This document shows positions 7,399 through 52,070 of a stretch of 64,000 bases of DNA, one piece after another; positions within the stretch are counted from its first letter, which is position 1; the number at the start of each line of letters is the position of its first letter. Under the pieces are notes generated by a model. It was not told the origin of the DNA, ran no database searches, and was given only the letters and a program-made list of their open reading frames with translations. The stretch covers positions 1 through 64,000 of the forward strand of contig CAVSHO010000012.1 in NCBI GenBank assembly GCA_963727825.1, written 5' to 3'. A program made the translations under genes and the position numbers. Source of the stretch: Ignavibacteriota bacterium. GTDB taxonomy: Bacteria > Bacteroidota > Ignavibacteria > UBA10030.

Positions 7399-7661
7399 TG
7401 CAAATTTCCTTTTCAAAGCCAATATACATTCGTCTCGCAAAAATCACGGGACGCCCGCCTGCTGGACGGGTAGGCAAAAAAGCGCGGAAGGACTGGAAAC
7501 CCGACAATGTAATAAACATAGTGTATTTCTGTTTTATCACTTTCTGAAATTTACACATTTTTCCGTATTTATAACAAATTTAAATGAGAGAAGTTTCCAC
7601 GATTTACTTTCCGTCCAACACTTCTCTTACCATTATTAGGATTATTATGGGTTTTCTGTGA

Positions 7662-7938
7662 TGTCAGGTCTTTTTCAGCTACAGAGTTACCTTCGGAAGG
7701 TTTCTCGGCTTAAACTCTGAACCCTTCCGAAGGTTACAACGTTCAGCAAGTCCTGACAGCACTTACATTCGGAAGAACGTAACCTTGTCAAGGTTCTCTG
7801 AGTAAAGTCCGATTAGTAATCGGACGCTACAAGGTAACCTTGACAAGGTTTTCTTAGCTCTGTAGCCTTCGGAAGGTTTCTCGGCTTAAACTCTGAACCC
7901 TTCCGAAGGTTACAACGTTTAGTAAGTCCTGACGGCAC
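7662..7938. repeat. Cluster of nested REP/REPIN-like palindromes
   Basis: Two copies of CCTTCGGAAGGtttctcggcttaaactctgaacCCTTCCGAAGG, an AACCTTGTCAAGGTT...AACCTTGACAAGGTT doublet, and GTCCTGACrGCAC ends. Confidence 0.8.
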
Positions 7939-7944
7939 AATCAT

Positions 7945-10900
7945 CTATTTTTCATCCAGCACTTCTCTAACCATTTTCAGGACTTTCTTAATATCATATG
8001 GTTTGAGGAGGAAATGTTGTATCCCCGCTTTTAAGAATTCGGATTTCATTTCCGGATCAAGAAACCCTGTTGCGACAATCATTCGTTCATTCGGATTGAT
8101 TTTTTTTATCTGCACACACTCTTCCATTCCGGTCATCCTCGGTAATCCGAGATCCGTAAGCACAAGCGCAATCTCCTTCATCCTTTCCTTATAAGTATTC
8201 ACTGCCTCGAATCCATCCTTAACAGAAAGAACTTTATATCCCTTTTCAATGAGTACCGTCTGAAGAGGCATCCTGAGCATTTCTTCATCTTCTGCAATCA
8301 ACAATGTCTCTGTTCCGCCTGGAATACTTTCTAACATCTCTTCTTCTTTTTCAGTGATGGGCGCTACCATATGTGATGCAGGTAAATATATTCTAAAAGT
8401 TGTTCCCTTGCCAGGGTCACTATCTACATCAATAAACCCTGAGTGAGATTGTATCACTCCGAATGTTACTGACAATCCCAATCCTGTTCCTTTTCCTATT
8501 TCTTTTGTTGTGAAAAACGGTTCAAAGATTCGCTTCCGAATTTCTTCGCTCATCCCTTCACCTGTATCACTCACTTCAATGCATACATAACTGCTCGCAG
8601 CAGCATCCGGATGTTGATTACGCAGCTTTTCAACAGATATCATGCGCGTATTGATGGTGAGAACGCCGCCATTTGGCATGGCATCGCGGGCATTGACACA
8701 AAGGTTCATCAATACTTGATGCAGTTGTGAGCGATCTGCATTGATGTAAGGAACTGCTTTATCGAAATTCTGAGAATAGGTAAGATTTTTGGGGAACGTT
8801 TCAAGTATCATTGTCATAATTTCCATAACAACATCATTTACATTCACCGGTCCAAATGCTGTTTCCGTTTTTCTTGCAAATGTCAAGATCGATTGAACAA
8901 GTGTTTGGCCGCGCTGCACGGCTTTCGTGATAGTTTCAGTAGCAAGGTCCAATTGTTTTGTATCATTTTTATATCTTTTAATATTTGCGTTGTACGCTAG
9001 TATGATTCCAAGAATATTGTTGAAATCATGTGCGATTCCTCCTGCAAGCGTTCCTAATCCCTCCAGCTTTTGCATTTGCCTTACTGCTTCTTCCGCCTGC
9101 TTGCGTTCGGTTATATCTGTGAGCACGCCGCGTATTCCAATTGGCTTGTTCTCCTTGATAATTGGCCTACTCGAAGTTCGTATCCATCTAAATTCACCGG
9201 ATTTTATTTTTACCAGATATTCAGTCGGCACAAGATTTCCCGCCATGACATTTTGAAATTGTTCTTTGTTCTTTGGAAGAAACTGTGGATCAAGAAATTC
9301 ACCCAAAGAATGGCCTATCATCTCTTCCGGTTTGTATCCGCCTAATATTTCGACTGTTGGACTGATATAAGTAAAAATTCCGTTCGTATCTGTCGTATAA
9401 ATTACATCATTGATTTGCTCTACCATAGCACGATATTTTTCTTCGCTCTCTTTTAATGCTTCTTCTGCTTCCTTACGTTCGGTGATATCCTCGATCATCA
9501 CCAGAACGTAGAATGATTTTCTGTCTGTACTGCTGATTTTTGATAGAGTCCTCGTAGCCCAGATCACCTCACCGTTCTTCTTGAGGTATCGCTTCTCGGT
9601 TTGATGTCTCTGAATTTGTCCTTCCTGCAATCCCTTAACCGCTTCCACATCCACCGATAGGTCATCGGGATAAGTTGCATCTTTAAAAGTAATGTGCATT
9701 AATTCTTCTTTTGTGTATCCCAACATCTCGCATAATGACCTATTAACATCGATTAACCGACCATCGGTTAAGCTGGCCATTGCCATGCCAAGTGGCCCTT
9801 CCTCAAAGACCTTGCGGAATTTTTCCTCGCTCTCAAACAGTGCATTCTCTGTCCGCTTGCGCTCGGTGATATCGTGCACAACTCCTTGCAGACCAATTAC
9901 TTTTCCATTCTTTATAATTGGATATTCATATGCTTCCAGAAGAATTTCCCTTCCAGTCGCGTGCCGGACTTCTATATATACTGGCTCTTTAGTGAACTCT
10001 CCCCGAAGATGAGCACGTGTTATTTCTTTTGCGACTTGATTAAATTTTGTATCTGTGGTAAACCAATCTTGCCTCTTAATCCACACATCGACTTTATATC
10101 CTGTAATTTGCTCAACTGTCGGAGATACATAGATAGTTTTCGCTTCAGTATCCTGCGTGTAAAAAAACAGGTGGGGGGTTCCCTCCACGATAGCCCTCAT
10201 TCGTTCTTCACTTTTACTCAACGCATCTTCCGCACGTTTGCGGTCGGTAATGTCACTCACAATGTGAACTGCGCCATCGAACCGGCCAGTTGCATCCAGA
10301 ATTGGATCGACTATGACTTCGAACCAATTCTTTCCAATTTGTAATTCCATGCTCTCGCGGCGCAGACTATTTCTTGCACGCAGAAAGGGGCATTCCGGGA
10401 TCGGCTGCGTCGTGCAGTGTACGATTTCCCAACAGTGTTTGCCGATCAACTCCCCGTTTGCGCGTTGGAAGATGTGTTCCGACGTTTTGTTGGAGCGTAG
10501 TACACGCTGGTCCTTATCAAGAATCCACATCGCGTCGTTTGTAGCATCAAATGTGGTTTGCCACTCTTGCAATGCTTTGCCAATCACCTCTTCTGCTCGT
10601 TTGCGCTCAGTGATGTCGCGCGTCAGAGCCATAAACGAAACGGGATTGCCCTCTGCATCCCGAATAACCGTCGCGCTCAGTTCTATCTGAAACTGAGAAC
10701 CATCCTTTTTGAGCAAGCGATACTCAGCGTTTCTGATGACACTGTCTTTTAGAGTTTTCTGTAAGTTAACGCGGGCACGTTCCAATTCTTCCGGCAAAAA
10801 CAGATCGAATACACTTGTGCCAATCAGCTCTTCTGGGCGTTCATAACCATGCAATAACGCAGTTTGCGCGTTACACATGAGAATCTTGCCGTTCAAATCA

Positions 10901-11910
10901 GACTGTGTGATTGCATCGGGAGAGGATTCAATTATAGCTCGATAACGCGTTTCGCTCTCACGCAGTTCTTTTCCCGCTCGTTTGCTCTCGGCCACAACCG
11001 CAGACAGTAAAAGAGAAGGAATCGCCATGATTGCCAAATATAGCTGAACAACAATCACTGCATCCAATGGAGAATCATGGAGGACAACATTTATAACATT
11101 GCCAGATGCGGTAGAATAAATGGCGATCGTTGCTACCAAAAGCAAGGCAATTGTAACTCCGCGCACACTAAAACGCATTGCAGCCCACAATAGATATGGA
11201 AAGGTCGCATATGTGAGTAAAAGGGAAAACTGAGTATGAGCCGAAAGATAGCGGAATACTAAGTGGTTCATAAGGACCAGAGGAATGAAGAGGGCGGCTC
11301 CTTCCAGTACACGTTTCTGATTCCAAGTTTTTAATCCAGTTTTTGCCAAAGATGCCCAACTCAAAATGAGCGGTGTAACGAGAAGATTGCCAATGCCATC
11401 GGATGTTGACCACCACTGAAAAGATTTCAAAAATGGAGTTTCAAGAAAGTGTGTAGAGGCTACTGCCGATAGAAACGACCAGAGCACGTTGCTAAGAATC
11501 ACTGAGAGTAGCAGGAAACCTATCACATCTTTTATTTTACTGAAGTCGATTGGTTCTCCGACGAATTGAATCAATAACCAGGAACTTAAAACGGCATCTG
11601 CAGTAAGGACGAATGCATATATCAGGCTAACAGGTAATGGTGTACCGGTAAGCATTTCCGCAATAAAATCTATTATGAAAAGAACTCCTACAAGATACGG
11701 TCTGAGGTTACGCCGGCTCAATAAGATAGAAGAAAGAAATATTCCTGCTGGGGGCCAAATGGCTGCAATTCCTTCTGGTTCAAATACGAGAGACAGACTG
11801 AGCCGTGCCATTGCAAAATAAATAAGCGCAATGGAGGCGATCCAAAGGATATTCTGCCTTAAGGAGATGCGAGAAGGGAAAAAATACGTGTTGCCAATTT
11901 CTTGATTCAT
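7945..11910 (-). CDS. Hybrid sensor histidine kinase (MASE1, five PAS, HisKA, HATPase, REC)
   Basis: Hydrophobic N-terminus with IWPPAGI and [11 protein letters not shown], repeated DITERK motifs, AHDFNN H-box, FFTTK...GTGLGL and a C-terminal REC domain. Confidence 0.93.
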
Positions 11911-12024
11911 AGAAACCTCTATCTTACATCATGAATCGGGAGAGGAATGCAAGCTGAAAGGAAAGGTGGAGAAAATGTTCGGTTTGATGGTTTGTACATT
12001 CAGGACAATTCATAGCGAAATTCT

Positions 12025-12441
12025 CTAAGTTGGGAGGGAGTTATACTCCCGACTGTATTGCAATTTTTAGTTCGGGAGAACATCTCCCTCACAACTTTGG
12101 CACAAAAGTAATACTCATCCAAGTGAATAGCAAGGTGCGGACTACACTTCTCGTTGCACAGAAGTTATAATCTAAGTTGGGAGGGAGTTATACTCCCGAC
12201 TGTATTGTAATTTTTAGTTCGGGAGAACATCTCCCTCACAACTTTGGGTGGCTCGTGTAATTGTGTCGGTCTTCTGCCCGTTGAACCTTGATTTTGTGAT
12301 CATGCTCCTACTTCCAATCCCTTCCCTGGTATACAGAGTTGATGCACATCCGGTACAAAAGTAATGCCTAAGTTGGGAGGGAGTTATACTCCCGACTGTA
12401 TTGTAATTTTTAGTTCGGGAGAACATCTCCCTCACAACTTT
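12025..12441. repeat. REPIN-like 74-bp hairpin array A (copies 12025-12098, 12172-12245, 12368-12441)
   Basis: CTAAGTTGGGAGGGAGTTATACTCCCGACTGTATTGyAATTTTTAGTTCGGGAGAACATCTCCCTCACAACTTT. The arms are imperfect inverted repeats. Confidence 0.92.
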
Positions 12442-12495
12442 GGTACAAAAGTAATACTCATCCAAGTGAATAGCAAGGTGCGGACTACACACAGC

Positions 12496-12530
12496 AAAGC
12501 CCGATTTCGTGACCAGAATATCGGGCTTTT
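12496..12530. terminator. Terminator-like hairpin (duplicate of the one after sod)
   Basis: AAAGCCCGAT...ATCGGGCTTTT, with a near copy at 17809-17844. Confidence 0.6.
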
Positions 12531-12673
12531 ATCGTTACTGATTATGTACATGCAAATCAGGTCTTGTTTATATACAGAGTTACCTTCAAAAGGGCCGAAA
12601 GCCTGATTTCCCTTTTTCTTTCAAGATTGCTTCCTCTTTCATTACACTGTTCTATTTCAAGTTTCTTCTGTAA

Positions 12674-12796
12674 CTGTCAGGACGCCCGCCCAACCCGCCA
12701 CAAAGCATGGCGGGTAAACAAGACGGCAGGTAAGTAAATCCTGACAGCACACGGAATTTATTCCTTTCACCGTCAGGACGTAAGTCCTGACGGCAC
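12674..12796. repeat. GTGCyGTCAGGAC-family REP pair with nested hairpin insertions
   Basis: CCGTCAGGACGTAAGTCCTGACGGCAC at 12770-12796. A second copy is split by GCCCGCC...CCCGCCAcaaagcaTGGCGGG+TAAA...GGCAGG. Confidence 0.7.
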
Positions 12797-12802
12797 AACC
12801 TT

Positions 12803-15800
12803 CTACTTCTTATCCAGCACTTCCCTTACCATTTTCAGAACTTGTGTGAAATCGTACGGTTTGTACAGAAAATGTTGTACACTTACTTTCAGCAATTCCG
12901 ATTTCATATTTGGGTCAATATACCCTGATGCCAAAATAATACGCTGATTCGGATTGATTTTTTTGATCTTGTTGCACACTTCCAATCCGGATATATTAGG
13001 CAATCCGAGATCGGTAAGTACAAGAGCGATATCGTTTTTTCTTTCTTGATAGATTTTCAGCGCCGTAAATCCATCTCCGACAGAAAGAACTTTGTACCCC
13101 TTATCAATGAGCACCGTCTGAAGAGGCATCATTAGCATCTCTTCATCCTCTATAACCAACAATGTCTCTGTTCCGCCCGGGATTTCTTCCATTGTTACTT
13201 CTTTTTTCACACTGACTGGCAATACGACTTGGGACGTAGGCAGATACAAGCGGAAGGTTGTTCCCCCTGCCTTGCCGGCAGGCAGGTTGCCGAGCTCACT
13301 GTCTACATCAATAAAACCTTTGTGAGATTGTATCACTCCGAACACTACTGACAATCCCAAACCCGTTCCTTTTCCTATTCCCTTTGTTGTGAAAAATGGC
13401 TCGAAGATACGCTTACGTGTCTCTTCGGTCATTCCTTCGCCTGTGTCACTAACTTCGATGCAAACATAACTGCTTGCATCAGCGGTGGGATGCTGAGAAC
13501 GCAGACTTACAACAGATACCATCCGCGTATTGATGGTGAGAACACCGCCCTTCGGCATTGCATCTCTTGCATTGATACAAAGATTCATCAATACTTGATG
13601 CAACTGCGAACGATCTGCATTGATGTATGAAATCGATTTATCGAAATTCTGTGAACAGGTTATAAACTTGGGGAATGTCTCCATAACCATAGTAACAGTT
13701 TCCATGACAATATCATTTACATTCAATGCACCGAATGCAGTTTCCGATTTTCTTGCAAACAATAATATTTGCTGGACAAGTGTTTTGCCACGATCCACAG
13801 CTTTCGTGATGGTTTTCGTAGCAAGATCCAATTTCTTTGGATCGTCCTTAAACCTCTTGATGCTTGTGTTGTATCCCAATATAATTCCAAGAATATTGTT
13901 AAAATCATGCGCTATCCCTCCGGCAAGCGTTCCTAATCCTTCCAGCTTTTGCATTTGTCGCAGTCCCTCTTCCATTTGCTTCTGCTCGGTGATGTCTTCC
14001 ACCGTTCCATCGTAATACAAAGTTTTGCCTTGAGAATCGCGAATCGCTCGAGCGCTTTCTAGCACAAAGATTGCCGTGCCATCCTGACAAATCCATTTTG
14101 ATTCATGACCAATTACCTCACCGTCTCTTTCGATCTTTTCAAGAAACTCTTTGCGTTGATAGGATGATTCAAAACCATCTTTTTTAAGATTTCTTTCAGC
14201 AAGTTTTTCAAAAGATGAATAGCCGAGCATTTTTACTAATGCCAGATTTGCCAATAATATGTTACCCTCGGGGGCCGTTCTATAAAGACCGATTGTGGCA
14301 TTCTCATAAAGTGAACGAAAACGTAACTCACTTTCTCGTAACTCTTGCTCTACCCGATTGCGTTCTGTGATATCCTGTCCAAGAGCAATAGTGGAGATTA
14401 TTGTTTTACCATCTGCAGTATATATATTTGCCGTATTCCATAATACAATGCGATTACTTCCATTCTTGCAACGAATAGGTATTTCGAAAGATATAAGGTT
14501 TTCTCCATCCGATGTTCTTGAAATAAGAGTTGATATTTCTTTTTGCTTTTCATCAGGAAAAAGCATTTCCGGATGTTTGCCAATGACATCGTACATTGTA
14601 TAACCAGTCAACCGTTCAAATGCCAGATTGAACCTCGTGATCCTAATGGTATTATCCCAAACCATAATAGGTGCATTCGTAAAACTAAACAGATTTTCAA
14701 GATAGTCACGAGTTTCACGTAATTCTTCCTCCGCCCGTTTGCGCTCGGTGATGTCGCGCATACTGCCTACAATCTTCAACGGTGTGCTGTTGGCATCGAA
14801 TTGTATCTTTGCAGAAATGGAACTCGGCACTTGTGAACCATCGCGGTTCTTTAGCATAACCTCATAATCTGAAACACTGCCTTGTCCTTGTAATAATGCG
14901 AGGAAAGCTTCTCGCCCGCCGGCAATAGAATAGAAATCGTACATCGACTTCCCTATGAGATCATCGCTATGATATTGTTCTTTCGAAATGATCTCGATGG
15001 AAGGGCTTACTTCGAGTATCGTTCCATCCAAAGCAGCCTCATAATACACATCCTGCACGTTCTCAAAAATGCCACGATATCTTTCTTCACTCTTGGACAG
15101 TGCTTCCTCTGCCCGCTTACGCTTGGTGATGTCCATTATATATCCAATAACTTTCACAACATTGCCGTTTTCCAGTATAGGTATTCCGATAGTCTGCACC
15201 CACAATTTTTCACCACGCGCATTAATAAACCTCGCTTCCAAGTCATAAGGTTCGCCATTAGTTATTGCTTTATTGAATGCATCAGAAACTAAAGACCTGT
15301 CATTCGGGTAATAAAAATTAGCTCCTTCTTCTGTCGAAGACAATTTGTCTTTCGCTATACCATAGATATTGAAAATCTCATCTGAAAAATTTGCTTTGTG
15401 CGCTTGAACATCATATTCCCAACCACCGACTTTCGCAATTTTTTGAGTTTCATTTAATAATTTTTCACTTTTTTTCAGTGTTTCTTCTGCCCGCTTGCGC
15501 TCGGTGATGTCAGTGGCAATACCCACGAGCGCGATATTTTGTCCTTGCTCATCTCGAACAAAGGATGTCGAAAGCGAAATCGGGAAGTCGCGGCCATCCT
15601 TCGTCCGATTCATCAGTTCGCCACTCCATCCTCCAGTTAATGTCGCAGCGAGAATATCACGAGTAGTTTCGGGAGGATTGTTTAGTGACCGCACTACATT
15701 GATGTTCTTTCCCAGAATTTCGTGCTCACTATAACCATACGTTTTCAAAAATGCGTTGTTGACAAAGAGGACAATATTATTCAAGTCCGTGATACTCACG

Positions 15801-16637
15801 CACTCTGCGATGCTTTTCAGTGTATGAGCAAGGAGGACGACCTGTTTCTCAACCTGCTTGCGCTCGGTGATGTCGTGAACAATTGAATGCAGCACATTCT
15901 TGTTTCCGATTGAAATATTGCTGCTGAATACTTCAACGTCCCGTATCGAACCATCTTTCCGCCTGTGTTTGAATTCGAATTGAACTCTTTTTTGAGACTT
16001 TACTTTCTGCATTTCCTTATTAACTTCTTCGGGTGGGAGAACATTGATCTGATAGATTTTCATCCTTTTCAATTCTTCACAGTTCCAACCATAATAGACT
16101 GCCGCGGAATTATTGGCATCAATAATCTCTCCAGATTCCGGATCGATCAGTAATTTCACTGCGGCATGATCTTCGAATATTTTACGGAACTTTTCTTCGC
16201 TTTCGTGCAGTGCTTCTTCAGACTGCTGTCGTGATTTCTTTTCCTTTGATTCATCAAGCGCGCGTTTAATTGCTAAAGGAAGCCTAATTAATCGATCCTT
16301 TAAGACATAATCGATAGCTCCCTGCTTGATAAGTTCGATGGCAGTTTCTTCGCCGATTGATCCGGAAACGCATATAAAGGGAACCTCCGGGCAGATATTC
16401 TTTGCTAATTTCAATGCTCCGTGCGCATCAAATCCGGGTAATTTGAAATCACTTAAAATGAGATCATATGTATGATTGTGAAGTAAAGATGTAAATTCCT
16501 TTTTCTTCTCAGGTACAATCCATACTGAGATCGTATCCTGCATCTAAAAGTAGTTCACGTATGATCTCGATGTCTCGAGGCGAGTCTTCAAGATATAAGA
16601 CTTTCAAAGCTATCTTATCTATGGTCTTCTTTTTCAT
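12803..16637 (-). CDS. Hybrid sensor histidine kinase (REC, six PAS, HisKA, HATPase, REC), frameshift near 16512
   Basis: The upstream frame [22 protein letters not shown]...SMDC joins ORF 12803..16543. AHDFNN and GTGLGL motifs are present. Confidence 0.9.
13266..13286 (-). mobile_element. 21-bp in-frame palindromic micro-insertion CCTG+CCTGCCGGCAAGGCAGG
   Basis: The paralog reads GGCAA|GGGAACAAC (GKGTT). Here the protein reads [12 protein letters not shown]. Confidence 0.85.
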
Positions 16638-16928
16638 TTGATTAGATCCTCTCTGGCGGTAATTCATTAATGACCGCCAAAAACACTCCGACTTGTTTTT
16701 TTCACTTCAATAAAATCTTGAAATAACATGCGATACAAGGCATACTATTGATATGAAAGTTAGCGAGTATTCTTTGCCGATGCGGGGAACAGTTGGATAA
16801 CAATCTAATTATGTTTTTATACGTGTCCATATCCCTTACCTCCAATCCCTATAATTGGCGTATGAGTTATAACACTGCTGGTGTTAAACTAACAAACCAC
16901 TGAGTGAAAAGCAAGATGCGGCTGCGCA

Positions 16929-17755
16929 CTAAGTTGGGAGGGAGTTATACTCCCGACTGTATTGCAATTTTTAGTTCGGGCTCCTTTTACATTTTATTGA
17001 TGCGGGAAATAACCCTAAGTTGGGAGGGAGTTTTACTCCCGACCCAATTCAGAACATTCAACAGTAATAACCGAGTGATCATCTTAAAGATAATTCCTCG
17101 CACTTGTTCCGTTGTACAGGATTTTCGTGCAAGTAATCTAACTTCTGTTAAAAGAAATCTTTTGCATCATTTGCGATGGAATGGTAACAAACACGCTCCG
17201 CCATTCAACAATAGTGGTCGTAATAAAATAGAGATTAACGCCGGGGGTAATTTTCCAGTGTCTCATATTTTATTATTGCAATTTTTAGTTCGGGAGAACA
17301 TCTCCCTCACAACTTTGGGTGGCTCGTGTAATTGTGTCGGTCTTCTGCCCGTGGAACCTTGATTTTGTGATCATGCTCCTACCTCCAACCCTTTCCCTGG
17401 TTTACAGAGATGATGCACATCCGGTACAAAAGTAATGCCTAAGTTGGGAGGGAGTTATACTCCCGACTGTATTGCAATTTTTAGTTCGGGAGAACATCTC
17501 CCTCACAACTTTGAAATTCTTCGGAATGATTTGGTGCGAAATGGTGTCGGATATATGTATGCTGAAACTTGCTTTTGTGTCCATACTCTTACCTCCAATC
17601 CCTATAATTGGTGTATGAGTTATAACACTGCTGGTGTTAAACTAACAAACCACTAAGCGAAAAGCAAGATGCGGCTGCGCACTAAGTTGGGAGGGAGTTA
17701 TACTCCCGACTGTATTGCAATTTTTAGTTCGGGAGAACATCTCCCTCACAACTTT
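16929..17755. repeat. REPIN-like hairpin array B (16929-16980 truncated, 17015-17316 split by the RAYT remnant, 17439-17512, 17682-17755)
   Basis: Same 74-bp unit as array A, and the inter-repeat segments are also shared with array A. Confidence 0.92.
17044..17266 (-). pseudogene. Internally deleted REP-associated tyrosine transposase (RAYT, Y1/HUH family)
   Basis: Three fragments in different frames: MRHWKITPGVNLYFITTTIVEWRSVFVTIP, DFF*QKLDYLHENPVQR and SARNYL*DDHSVITVEC. The HUH segment is missing. Confidence 0.85.
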
Positions 17756-17808
17756 GGTACAAAAGTAATACTCATCCAAGTGAATAGCAAGGTGTGAGCT
17801 GCACACAG

Positions 17809-17844
17809 CAAAGCCCGATTCCGTAGTTACAGAACCGGGCTTTT
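17809..17844 (-). terminator. Probable terminator of the suf-sod operon
   Basis: AAAGCCCG...CGGGCTTTT hairpin about 35 bp past the sod stop. Confidence 0.6.
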
Positions 17845-17878
17845 ATTGTTACTGATGACTCGTAACTTTTAACTGCTT

Positions 17879-18517
17879 TTACTTCCCAAGAACTAACTTC
17901 TTATAACGCTCGTTTATCCTTCCCCAATGCAGATTTGCGATGAAGTTATCTATAAATTTTGCTCGCGCGGGACCATCTTTGTGATAATATGCATGCTCGA
18001 AGACATCCAAAGGAATTAACGGCACTGCGCCCCAAATTGCGCCGTATTGATGTTCATCGACGAGTGCATTTAATAAACGACCGGAGTAAAGACGATCGTA
18101 CAGAAGCAATCCCCAACCGCCAAGCTTTGCCGATATTGCGGTCGCTTTAAAATCTGCTTTCCACGCGTCGAATGAACCAAAATCCTTTTCGATAGCCGCT
18201 TTGATTTCCAGACCCTTCGATGGATCGCCATCACCACCAAGAACATCCCAATAAATTTCATGCAGAAGTGCACCGGAATGATTCCAACTGAAACGCCGTT
18301 TCAATTCTCCGATAACGCTGTAGTTGCCGTTTGCGGCAGAACGATCGGCCGTTTCTAGAGCTTTTTCAATATTGTTCAGTGCAGTTACGTATCCCTTTTG
18401 ATGTGTATTATAATGCCAATCGGTTGTCTCCGGACTCATAACATTGGCGAGTAAATTTTTCGCTTCTTCATCTGAGTACGGGCGCTTGTTGAACTTCCAT
18501 TCGTATGCCATAGCCAT
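17879..18517 (-). CDS. Fe/Mn superoxide dismutase
   Basis: HYNTHQKGYV, LHEIYW, DFGSFDAWK, GWG and DVFEHAYY motifs. Confidence 0.9.
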   Translation of the reverse strand: MAMAYEWKFNKRPYSDEEAKNLLANVMSPETTDWHYNTHQKGYVTALNNIEKALETADRSAANGNYSVIGELKRRFSWNHSGALLHEIYWDVLGGDGDPSKGLEIKAAIEKDFGSFDAWKADFKATAISAKLGGWGLLLYDRLYSGRLLNALVDEHQYGAIWGAVPLIPLDVFEHAYYHKDGPARAKFIDNFIANLHWGRINERYKKLVLGK

Positions 18518-44479: not shown

Positions 44480-44651
44480 TTTTTTGTCTCCTATATTTTT
44501 ATTCTTAAATAATTTTCTGCGTCAATATACCCCGAAATGGAAGGAAAGTCAACGCACGAAATTTTAAACGCCTATATTGACTTTCGGAAAAAAATGGAGA
44601 TATATTAAGGTAAAGCTCATCAGTATTGATGAGTTTTTTAAATGATGTGAT

Positions 44652-44897
44652 TCCGCGATAGCTCAATGGTAGAGCATGCGGTCCGATCATCGCACAAGCG
44701 ATGATCGAGATCTCGTCCCGATAAAATCGGGACGGACTGTTAACCAGACTTTGAAATAGGGAATTATTTTTCATTCCGCGATAGCTCAATGGTAGAGCAT
44801 GCGGTCCGATCATCGCACAAGCGATGATCGAGATCTCGTCCCGATAAAATCGGGACGGACTGTTAACCAGACTTTGAAATAGGGAATTATTTTTCAT
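44652..44897 (+). repeat. Two identical 123-bp tandem units: tRNA-Asn 5' half with a 55-bp cruciform insert, plus a 29-bp spacer
   Basis: Units start at 44652 and 44775. The intact tRNA starts one period later at 44898. Confidence 0.92.
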
Positions 44898-44972
44898 TCC
44901 GCGATAGCTCAATGGTAGAGCATGCGGCTGTTAACCGCAGGGTTGTAGGTTCGAGTCCTACTCGCGGAGCCA
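44898..44972 (+). tRNA. tRNA-Asn(GTT)
   Basis: TCCGCGA acceptor, TGCGG-CT GTT AA-CCGCA anticodon arm, GGTTCGAGTCC T-arm and encoded CCA. Confidence 0.96.
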
Positions 44973-51179: not shown

Positions 51180-52070
51180 CTACTTGGTAATATCCAAAAG
51201 CTCCTTAGGGACATGAAAACCTAATTCTTTCGCTCTTTTGAAATTTGAATGCGCTTCGCTCTTTTTGTTAAGTCGCGCGTATGCGAGCCCCCTGTCATAG
51301 TAGGCGAGTGCAAAGTCCGGGTTCAAAACGATTGCCTTGGTGAAGTCAGCAATGGCTCCTTGATAGTCCTTAAGCGTATACCTTGTCAAGCCCCTGCCAT
51401 TGTAGGCTTCTGAATCATTCGGGTTCAAACCGATTGCCTTGGAGAAGTCAGCAATGGCTCCTTGATAGTCTTGAAGCATATACTTTGCTTTCCCCCTGCC
51501 GTTGTAGGAAATTTGTGCATCCTCAGGGTTCAAACCGATTGCCTTGGAGAAGTCGGAAATGGCTTCCTGATAGTCTTGAAGTGTATGCTTTGCGTATCCC
51601 CTGTAATAATAGACATCTGCATAATCTGGTTTCAGCTTGATTGCCTCATTGTAGTCGGTAATAGCTCCCTGACAATCTTCAAGATTAAACTTTGCGAACC
51701 CCCTGTAATAATAGGCATCTACAAAGTCCGGTTTCAGCTTGATTATTTCATTGAAGTCAACAATTGCGCCTTGATGGTCTTCTAGATTCCGCTTTGCAAT
51801 CCCTCTGAATAGATAGGCTTCCGCAAAATCCGGTTTCAGTTTGATTGCCTCGTTGAAGTCAGCAATAGCTTCTTGCCATTCGTTAAGTTCACTCTTTGCG
51901 TTTCCTCTGTGTAGGAAGGCTTCTGCATAATCTGGTTTCAGTTTGATTGCCTCATTGATGTCAGCAATGGCTCCCCGATAGTCTTGATGTATACACTTTT
52001 CGAGCCCCCTAAGATAGTAGGCTTTAGCATCATCCAGTTCCATACCGATTGACTTTTTGAACAGACTCAT
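51180..52070 (-). CDS. Tetratricopeptide repeat protein (eight 34-aa repeats)
   Basis: Repeated AY..RG.AK..L.DYQGAIADF..AI.L.P, with 102-bp DNA periodicity. Confidence 0.93.
   Translation of the reverse strand: MSLFKKSIGMELDDAKAYYLRGLEKCIHQDYRGAIADINEAIKLKPDYAEAFLHRGNAKSELNEWQEAIADFNEAIKLKPDFAEAYLFRGIAKRNLEDHQGAIVDFNEIIKLKPDFVDAYYYRGFAKFNLEDCQGAITDYNEAIKLKPDYADVYYYRGYAKHTLQDYQEAISDFSKAIGLNPEDAQISYNGRGKAKYMLQDYQGAIADFSKAIGLNPNDSEAYNGRGLTRYTLKDYQGAIADFTKAIVLNPDFALAYYDRGLAYARLNKKSEAHSNFKRAKELGFHVPKELLDITK

Follow-up and report, generated by a model that had tools for sequence, protein, structure and literature searches.

A RAYT pseudogene between the two halves of a REPIN: the probable remains of a REPtron in an Ignavibacteriales-like bacterium

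Introduction

What is the relation between a short palindromic repeat and the remains of a transposase gene, when the latter are found between the two halves of one copy of the repeat? The question is raised by a locus in a 64-kb window (the whole stretch of DNA that was analysed), for which an initial annotation described a 74-bp repeat and a RAYT remnant enclosed by the two arms of that repeat. The locus was then read as the birth of a REPIN caught in place, in a class of RAYT that behaves like an insertion sequence (IS).

The transposases TnpA_REP and those of the IS200/IS605 type recognise hairpins in single-stranded DNA and cleave beside them by means of an HUH motif and a tyrosine. Here we describe the repeat, the remnant and the related loci of other genomes, and we discuss which part of this reading can be kept.

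Anatomy and copies of the repeat unit

The repeat of the window is a 75-nt palindromic unit, which consists of two REP-like arms that are inverted relative to each other, each arm having its own small GGGAG-N5-CTCCC hairpin. As single-stranded DNA, the 75-nt unit folds into one long imperfect hairpin, with energies of -16.7 and -18.4 kcal/mol for the two strands; the corresponding z values are -5.5 and -6.4, and none of 200 shuffles was equally stable. Two inverted REPs forming a hairpin make this unit a REPIN by structure.

The left arm has seven matches in the 64-kb window, all on the plus strand, and the right arm has six, in the same orientation throughout, when none is expected in either case (100 shuffles). 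Five intact units, which are 98.7-100% identical among themselves, and one truncated unit are detected by blastn, and this is the copy number that had been announced. Another copy is split into two halves by an insert of 230 nt, at a position where the intact units have only 2 nt (Table 1). All five intact copies are extragenic and confined to two clusters, A and B, within the 64 kb. These clusters are two intergenic regions 5 kb apart, and no REPIN arm is found in the other ~62 kb of the window. Since all the copies lie in two clusters and have a single orientation, the window does not show dispersal by transposition.

The search of Rfam with the region 11800-18000 returned only mir-3479, with 22 bits for a gathering score of 79; being far below this score, the match was rejected as a chance resemblance of a hairpin to the REPIN. 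Promoter-like sites amount to 14 for 13.9 expected, and terminator-like sites to 8 for 4.9 expected, counts that were judged uninformative; the model used does not include promoters of the Bacteroidota type.

Table 1. Positions in the window of the REPIN copies, of the RAYT remnant and of the adjacent spacer
Feature	Position	Strand	Evidence and remarks
Intact REPIN, cluster A	12025-12099	-	Arm matches, blastn
Intact REPIN, cluster A	12172-12246	-	Blastn; same slot relative to the 121-nt spacer as the RAYT unit in cluster B
Intact REPIN, cluster A	12368-12442	-	Arm matches, blastn
Truncated REPIN (5' REP reduced to 7 nt; 3' REP and inner part present)	16929-16980 (52 nt, 100%)	-	Blastn
Split REPIN, two halves around the 230-nt insert	17015-17043 / 17274-17317 (or 17318)	-	Blastn
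3' REP of the RAYT unit (the left arm of the initial annotation)	17015-17043 (29 nt)	-	Hairpin 17027-17039; 1 mismatch to the other six copies
Insert: RAYT (TnpA_REP) pseudogene and 7-nt leader	17044-17273 (230 nt)	-	Homologue alignment
RAYT aa 160-179, frame -1	17048-17107	-	80% identical; in-frame TAA 17084-17086
RAYT aa 123-153, frame -3, catalytic-Tyr motif	17094-17186	-	Tblastn; in-frame TAA 17148-17150
RAYT aa 1-30, frame -1	17177-17266	-	87% identical to P0002 and P0003
5' REP (hairpin 17293-17305) and 19-nt leader (17274-17292)	17274-17317/8 (44-45 nt, 100%)	-	Leader identical to the inner part of the REPIN
121-nt spacer preceding the RAYT unit in gene sense	17318-17438	.	Paralogue 12247-12367; with adjacent REP sequence, makes up the 240-nt repeat
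Intact REPIN, cluster B	17439-17513	-	Arm matches, blastn, folding
Intact REPIN, cluster B	17682-17756	-	Arm matches, blastn

The split unit

The 64-kb window was searched by tblastn with P0002, a metagenomic RAYT of 179 aa. Three collinear pieces are obtained (E values of 4e-13 and 5e-12 are reported), which confirms that the halves of the repeat enclose a RAYT remnant, and beyond these pieces there is no credible match that would indicate a second RAYT in the window. The arms around the remnant are inverted and recur in the five intact units and in the truncated one. The three peptide stretches by which the remnant had been recognised (the N-terminus, the Tyr motif and the C-terminus) are indeed present on the minus strand, in the same order as in full-length RAYTs; the catalytic Tyr motif (Y...NP) lies in 17082-17147 of this strand and corresponds to aa 135-147 of P0002.

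The HUH core had been described as missing, and we agree: the window copy is devoid of the motif, which reads PNH.HY in homologues. A first deletion of ~286 nt has removed aa 31-122, HUH motif included. Its junction falls within a stretch of 10 nt (17177-17186) that can be aligned to both sides, an overlap that would fit a microhomology-mediated deletion. A second deletion, of ~32 nt, has removed aa ~148-159, ahead of the piece that corresponds to aa 160-179. Besides these deletions, the reading frame changes twice and contains two in-frame TAA (17148-17150 and 17084-17086). Since its HUH motif is deleted, the window copy is a pseudogene of the RAYT family and not a working member. The coding part of the remnant is 222 nt long (17266-17045, minus strand); it begins with an ATG at 17266-17264, and has a TTG (17047-17045) where the homologues have their stop codon. 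The description of a 223-bp remnant was thus right as to its nature, but the length has to be corrected, and the two TAA, the ~32-nt deletion and the two frame changes have to be added.

In the sense of the gene, the hairpin of the 5' REP (17305-17293) is followed by 19 nt that are shared with the REPINs, by 7 nt, and by the ATG at 17266. The 5' REP hairpin ends 26 nt before the ATG, while the codon at the position of the stop is 5 nt from the hairpin of the 3' REP (17039-17027). An intact REPIN consists of the 5' part of the RAYT unit, 2 nt, and the 3' part, and therefore corresponds to the RAYT unit minus its gene. The claim that the joined arms reproduce the repeat unit holds, including for the 19 nt next to the 5' hairpin, except that the unit has 75 nt and not 74.

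An open reading frame of the plus strand (16904-17362, 152 aa) crosses three REP units and is antisense to the remnant; we consider that it is probably spurious.

Family of the RAYT remnant

The remnant fragments, of 22-42 aa, have no RAYT match among the Pfam and NCBIfam profiles, and their match to MLLE_2 (E 0.08-0.11), which is at chance level, was rejected. Since the fragments match no profile, the RAYT identity of the remnant is established via its full-length homologues. The protein search with the N-terminal piece gives homologues of 168-179 aa which have PF01797 and are 83-89% identical over the matched part; some of them are named RayT by their source. P0002 scores 111.9 bits with the NCBIfam profile REP_Tyr_transpos (NF047646), whose cut-off is 80, and 33.4 bits with Pfam Y1_Tnp (PF01797), whose cut-off is 23, while its score with NCBIfam transpos_IS200 (23.8 bits) is under the cut-off of 55 bits. 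A lack of matches to Y1_Tnp or RAYT profiles would have spoken against the initial annotation; the fragments themselves have none, but the full-length homologues match above the cut-offs, so that in substance the objection does not apply. The profile built from 19 relatives also matches TnpA_REP from E. coli (4ER8, E 3e-6).

The family comprises 847 proteins at E <= 1e-5, and a library clustered at 50% identity contains 7439 representatives at E <= 1e-3, of which 70 are retained at E <= 1e-30. Many of the RAYT proteins come from metagenomic contigs of ~1 kb. This could be taken as a sign that the gene is present in many copies, an argument that we did not retain, since flanking multi-copy REPINs would probably break assemblies even around a single-copy gene.

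Flanking arms in related loci

A first scan of genomes (one genome per species) with an alignment of the close family gave 55 pattern matches, none of which was confirmed; about as many are expected, by our own estimate, for degenerate 8-residue patterns in 596 Gb. The scan with a broader alignment gave 132 relatives, the best 80 of which were kept as 79 loci. These loci belong to MAGs as well as isolates, and the phyla represented are Bacteroidota, Ignavibacteriota, Kryptoniota and a few others.

According to a script, 67 of the 79 loci have a single open frame of 176-201 aa. The aligned region contains an in-frame stop in four loci (L010, L014, L018 and L046), and the RAYT is split over two frames in four others (L024, L052, L060 and L074); in L017, L021, L056 and L058, it is cut by the end of the contig or its frame is unclear. 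With eight of 79 loci apparently disrupted, decay is not rare in this gene family. The pieces of the split RAYTs span ~1-1.5 kb in L052, L060 and L074, and ~0.7 kb in L024.

The presence of arms was assessed by aligning the upstream flank of the gene (200 nt) to the reverse-complemented downstream flank of equal length, in 74 loci (L009, L017, L021, L054 and L057 were dropped because of their short flanks), and in 398 control pairs where one flank was displaced by 0.8-2.5 kb. Inverted arms scoring at least 30 are found in 51 of the 74 loci, compared to 5 of the 398 controls. The initial annotation would have been refuted if intact homologues lacked these arms, which is not the case.

The arms also resemble those of the window in their geometry. 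The hairpin of the 5' type (GGAG-N5-CTCC) is separated from the start by 17-35 nt in L001, L002, L003, L011, L014 and L015, and at a greater distance in L005, L006 and L007; the arm of the 3' type is found 9-28 nt past the stop in L001, L005, L006, L011, L014, L015 and L017. The closest loci conserve the motif G(C/T)TG.GA.GGAG-N5-CTCC.GA, and when 18 arms are aligned, no variation is seen in the GGAG and CTCC stems or at several positions beside them. Gene and arms have the same orientation in the window and in the closest loci. L005 contains three further doublets, the 5' type followed by the 3' type, within its 5 kb. It is important to note that the exact REP motif of the window has no match in the 79 loci, so that the arms can be called the same at the level of motif and geometry only.

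Genomic setting of the clusters

The two intergenic regions that contain the REPINs are on either side of a large gene coding for a PAS histidine kinase (12803-16543). Apart from the REPINs, the clusters have longer modules in common: a REPIN followed by a 47-nt tail occurs three times across the two clusters, a 158-nt module occurs twice, and a 240-nt module is present at 12203-12442 and 17274-17513, the two occurrences being 96.7% identical. In this latter pair, an ordinary REPIN of cluster A occupies the slot that is taken by the RAYT unit in cluster B. The RAYT unit and the REPIN are paralogous on one side only: past the unit the similarity is lost, and the flanks on the far side are different.

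This setting could be explained without any mobility of the repeats. The palindromes would have been copied only by tandem or segmental duplication, along with the paralogues of the PAS histidine kinase, and the RAYT would be a relic that has no present role. All copies do lie in the two intergenic regions, next to kinase genes that are paralogous, their flanks were duplicated with them (three times for the 47-nt tail, twice for the 158-nt and 240-nt modules), and the local RAYT is dead. We nevertheless consider this explanation unlikely. The repeat modules are 92-100% identical (92-99% for those made of a REPIN and its flank that recur from one cluster to the other), versus 74-83% for the kinase paralogues beside them, which implies that the modules spread or were homogenised after the duplication of the genes. 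Besides, five kinds of left junction and three kinds of right junction are counted over the seven units, a diversity that hints at insertions or recombination there. Last, the same REP motif, in the sense defined above, flanks RAYTs in other genomes, and L005 has doublets.

As for the origin of the DNA, the SufC protein of the window shares 93-94% identity with proteins assigned to MAGs of Bacteroidota and Ignavibacteriales. The source contig is metagenomic, and misassembly may have occurred inside the repeat clusters.

Two observations were made on the reading frames of this region. On the minus strand, the spacers 16823-16927, 17577-17680 and 17318-17438 have a GGAGG-type motif that resembles a ribosome-binding site, followed by an ATG and open reading frames of 29-60 aa that enter the next REPIN; these short frames look like copied fragments of gene starts. 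In addition, a 52-aa frame of the minus strand (16509-16667 region), which resembles the beginning of a receiver domain, lies immediately upstream of the 1246-aa frame of the PAS histidine kinase and overlaps its start, and this gene may have a frameshift or a start that is not correctly set.

Other repeats in the window

The window contains three other kinds of repeats. The first is a second, unrelated set of palindromic repeats, at 7686-7938 and 12676-12800, downstream of both kinase paralogues. It includes 73-nt copies (7690-7762 and 7866-7938) that are 96% identical and have hairpins of the CCTTCGGAAGG type, as well as GTCAGGAC...GTCCTGAC palindromes. This set may be another REP-like family.

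Then, two identical 123-nt units are found in tandem ahead of an intact tRNA-Asn gene (44898-44972), in the region 44650-44972. Each is composed of the first ~31 nt of the tRNA-Asn, an insert of ~53 nt with two small hairpins, and the sequence of the anticodon loop, without the 3' half. These units are partial duplications of the tRNA.

Last, repeats of 102 nt, 62-73% identical, are arranged in tandem at 51206-52011, within a 296-aa frame of the minus strand; a period of 102 nt inside a reading frame means that the protein has a repeat of 34 residues.

Discussion

From the anatomy of the unit, the homology of the remnant, its pseudogene lesions and the REP-gene-REP layout conserved in relatives, all of which are observed, we conclude that the locus is likely to be a decayed REPtron of an uncultured Ignavibacteriales-like bacterium, with a probability of about 80%. 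The scenario that we favor is the following. A RAYT/TnpA_REP gene of the 179-aa class would formerly have been located between a 5' REP, 26 nt before its ATG, and an inverted 3' REP, right after its stop codon. The two REPs joined via a short leader would make up the 75-nt REPIN, which would be the non-autonomous partner of the RAYT transposase. By analogy with E. coli TnpA_REP and IS200/IS605, the REPs would be the sites that the transposase recognises and cleaves on single-stranded DNA hairpins, and the REPINs would have been moved in trans. The REPIN itself may have arisen from a REP-RAYT-REP unit through the loss of the gene. Much of the local copy number, on the other hand, is probably the result of duplication or recombination of modules consisting of a REPIN and its flank, rather than of separate transpositions.

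The local RAYT, which has lost its HUH motif and contains two frame changes and two stops, is unable to mobilise anything. Either the REPINs are moved by a different RAYT copy, encoded at another place of the genome, or their movement has ceased.

Is the window copy a step on the way from RAYT unit to REPIN? The initial annotation answered that the birth of a REPIN had been caught in place, which we do not find supported. The deletions of the remnant are inside the gene, while the junction of the REPIN connects the 3' REP to a point situated 7 nt upstream of the ATG. Since the two do not coincide, the remnant is a decaying side branch, not a step towards the REPIN; its nonsense codons and frame changes are also those commonly seen when a gene decays.

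The idea of an intermediate is part of a broader proposal, in which RAYTs of this class are autonomous elements comparable to an IS, and the locus is a true intermediate in a series that goes from the full element to an internal deletion and then to the REPIN. The layout is indeed that of IS200, with a gene between one REP on each side; the REPIN equals both ends of the unit plus 19 nt of leader; and the RAYT unit and the REPIN share the slot beside the 121-nt spacer in the 96.7% identical modules. A pseudogene with nearly perfect arms would also be expected if several copies existed, and near-identical RAYT pairs are present within one genome in distant relatives (L025, and the pair L053/L067). 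However, the two deletions of the remnant are internal, unlike the REPIN junction, and with its two nonsense codons the remnant is a product of decay and does not carry the founding deletion; the paralogy between RAYT unit and REPIN is seen on one side only; and the 64 kb contain a single RAYT copy. L006 and L010, which come from one MAG, are divergent copies, as is the case for domesticated RAYTs. Only 5 of 72,556 plasmid records contain a relative, in each case with less than 40% identity and on a non-mobilizable plasmid, and phage records contain none. We therefore find this proposal quite unlikely, and the near-identical pairs, which are local, do not change our opinion.

Regarding these pairs, the two RAYT units of L025, a Tenuifilaceae MAG, are located at 7539-8365 and 9899-10710; they are 96% identical, have 35-nt inverted repeats at their ends, and lie 2.4 kb apart amid several copies of the arm. 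The units of L053 and L067 (Arenibacter sp. F26102, each at 9844-10940) are 96.6% identical and 18 kb apart. We considered IS-like transposition as the origin of the Arenibacter pair and rejected it: the similarity begins at the left arm and enters the next gene, going past the right arm by ~320 nt, and neither of the two 20-kb loci contains further copies of the arm, which points to a segmental duplication.

The possibility that a RAYT fragment inserted secondarily into an existing REPIN, the nesting being accidental, would account for a unit whose inner part is broken up between the REP halves, but it is extremely improbable, since the distances between the gene and the arms here (26 nt on the 5' side and 5 nt on the 3' side) are as short as those in intact homologues of other genomes (17-35 nt and 9-28 nt), and gene and arms have the same orientation in all compared loci.

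What remains of the initial interpretation is that REPIN and RAYT unit are structurally homologous, which is its strongest argument, and that intact relatives have equivalent arms; the birth in place is not supported, and there is little evidence for IS-like behaviour.

A more speculative view, which we hold to be doubtful, is that the RAYT clade of Ignavibacteriota and Bacteroidota is a living intermediate between an IS of the IS200 type and a domesticated RAYT. Whole units would still duplicate and spin off REPINs by losing their gene, possibly repeatedly, and the pseudogene of the window would be one of several copies. If that were true, the paired modules, with a RAYT unit and a REPIN in the same slot, would record such a conversion.

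Comparison with known systems

The type of system, the protein subclass and the structured flanks have already been described, and the locus adds one decayed case. We compare this decayed REPtron, as we read it, to three known systems.

With IS200/IS605 elements and their miniature derivatives, the locus shares the succession of a left hairpin, tnpA and a right hairpin, and the existence of a short derivative in which the two ends are combined. Contrary to these elements, P0002 is below the IS200 cut-off and its family is rare on plasmids, and the window contains a pseudogene instead of multiple full-length copies.

The RAYT family is most like subclass 2.6 of Quentin et al. 2018, which is group 5 of Bertels et al. 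2017; this assignment would fit the features tabulated by the authors, and was made from these features rather than with the authors' models. In the sections of PMC6006769 considered here, subclass 2.6 has a mean length of 179 aa and the motifs NH[LIV]H, WQ, YIH[QN]NP and SS; most of its members are from Bacteroidetes, and they have atypical flanking secondary structures of which the genome contains further copies. The list of its REPs (PMC6006769, supplement 2 part 6) consists of hairpins with a GCTG or GCTA foot. The relatives of the window copy are likewise of 179 aa, with NH.H, WQ, Y(I/L)H.NP and an SS tail, are found in the neighbourhood of Bacteroidota, and have non-canonical flanking structures that recur in the genome; the closest loci have a foot of the GCTG type, and the listed REPs resemble the arms of Bacteroidota loci. 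As variants, NHAH and YLHENP also occur in our family alignment. The two supplements have no entry for Ignavibacterium or Melioribacter, and the doublets equal to joined flanks that we find here are not described in the sections considered. As regards group 5, the part of PMC5581495 that deals with it reports no sign of high duplication rates, and flanking 16-mers that are fairly frequent.

The third system is the REPtron, or RAYT-REPIN system, as in E. coli (TnpA_REP and BIMEs) and Pseudomonas. In both cases a homologue of Y1 HUH transposases is flanked by inverted REPs, and near-identical extragenic REP doublets that form hairpins are found in tandem clusters that include flanks. Such clusters are reported for Pseudomonas REPINs in PMC3116915, in the part cited here, and the inactivation of a RAYT has a precedent in the frameshift of N. 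gonorrhoeae (bioRxiv 10.1101/2021.07.10.451892, section on this species). The differences are that the gene is here between the halves of a single REPIN and not between whole REPINs, that the hairpin is short (GGGAG/CTCCC stem of 5 bp) and lacks the canonical GT[AG]G foot, and that the host is Ignavibacteriales-like, with a gene reduced to 222 nt.

That a REPIN can originate from the fused flanks of an IS, an autonomous element thus giving rise to a REPIN, had already been hypothesised, in passages of PMC3116915 and of bioRxiv 10.1101/2021.07.10.451892. The finding of a RAYT of a different class between the halves of its own REPIN, whose inner sequence is the leader of the gene, gives direct sequence-level support to the flank-fusion hypothesis as worded in the passage of PMC3116915. 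It also extends a clear REPIN-RAYT pairing to an Ignavibacteriales-like lineage, and the conserved REP motif of this RAYT clade provides a handle for genome-wide surveys.
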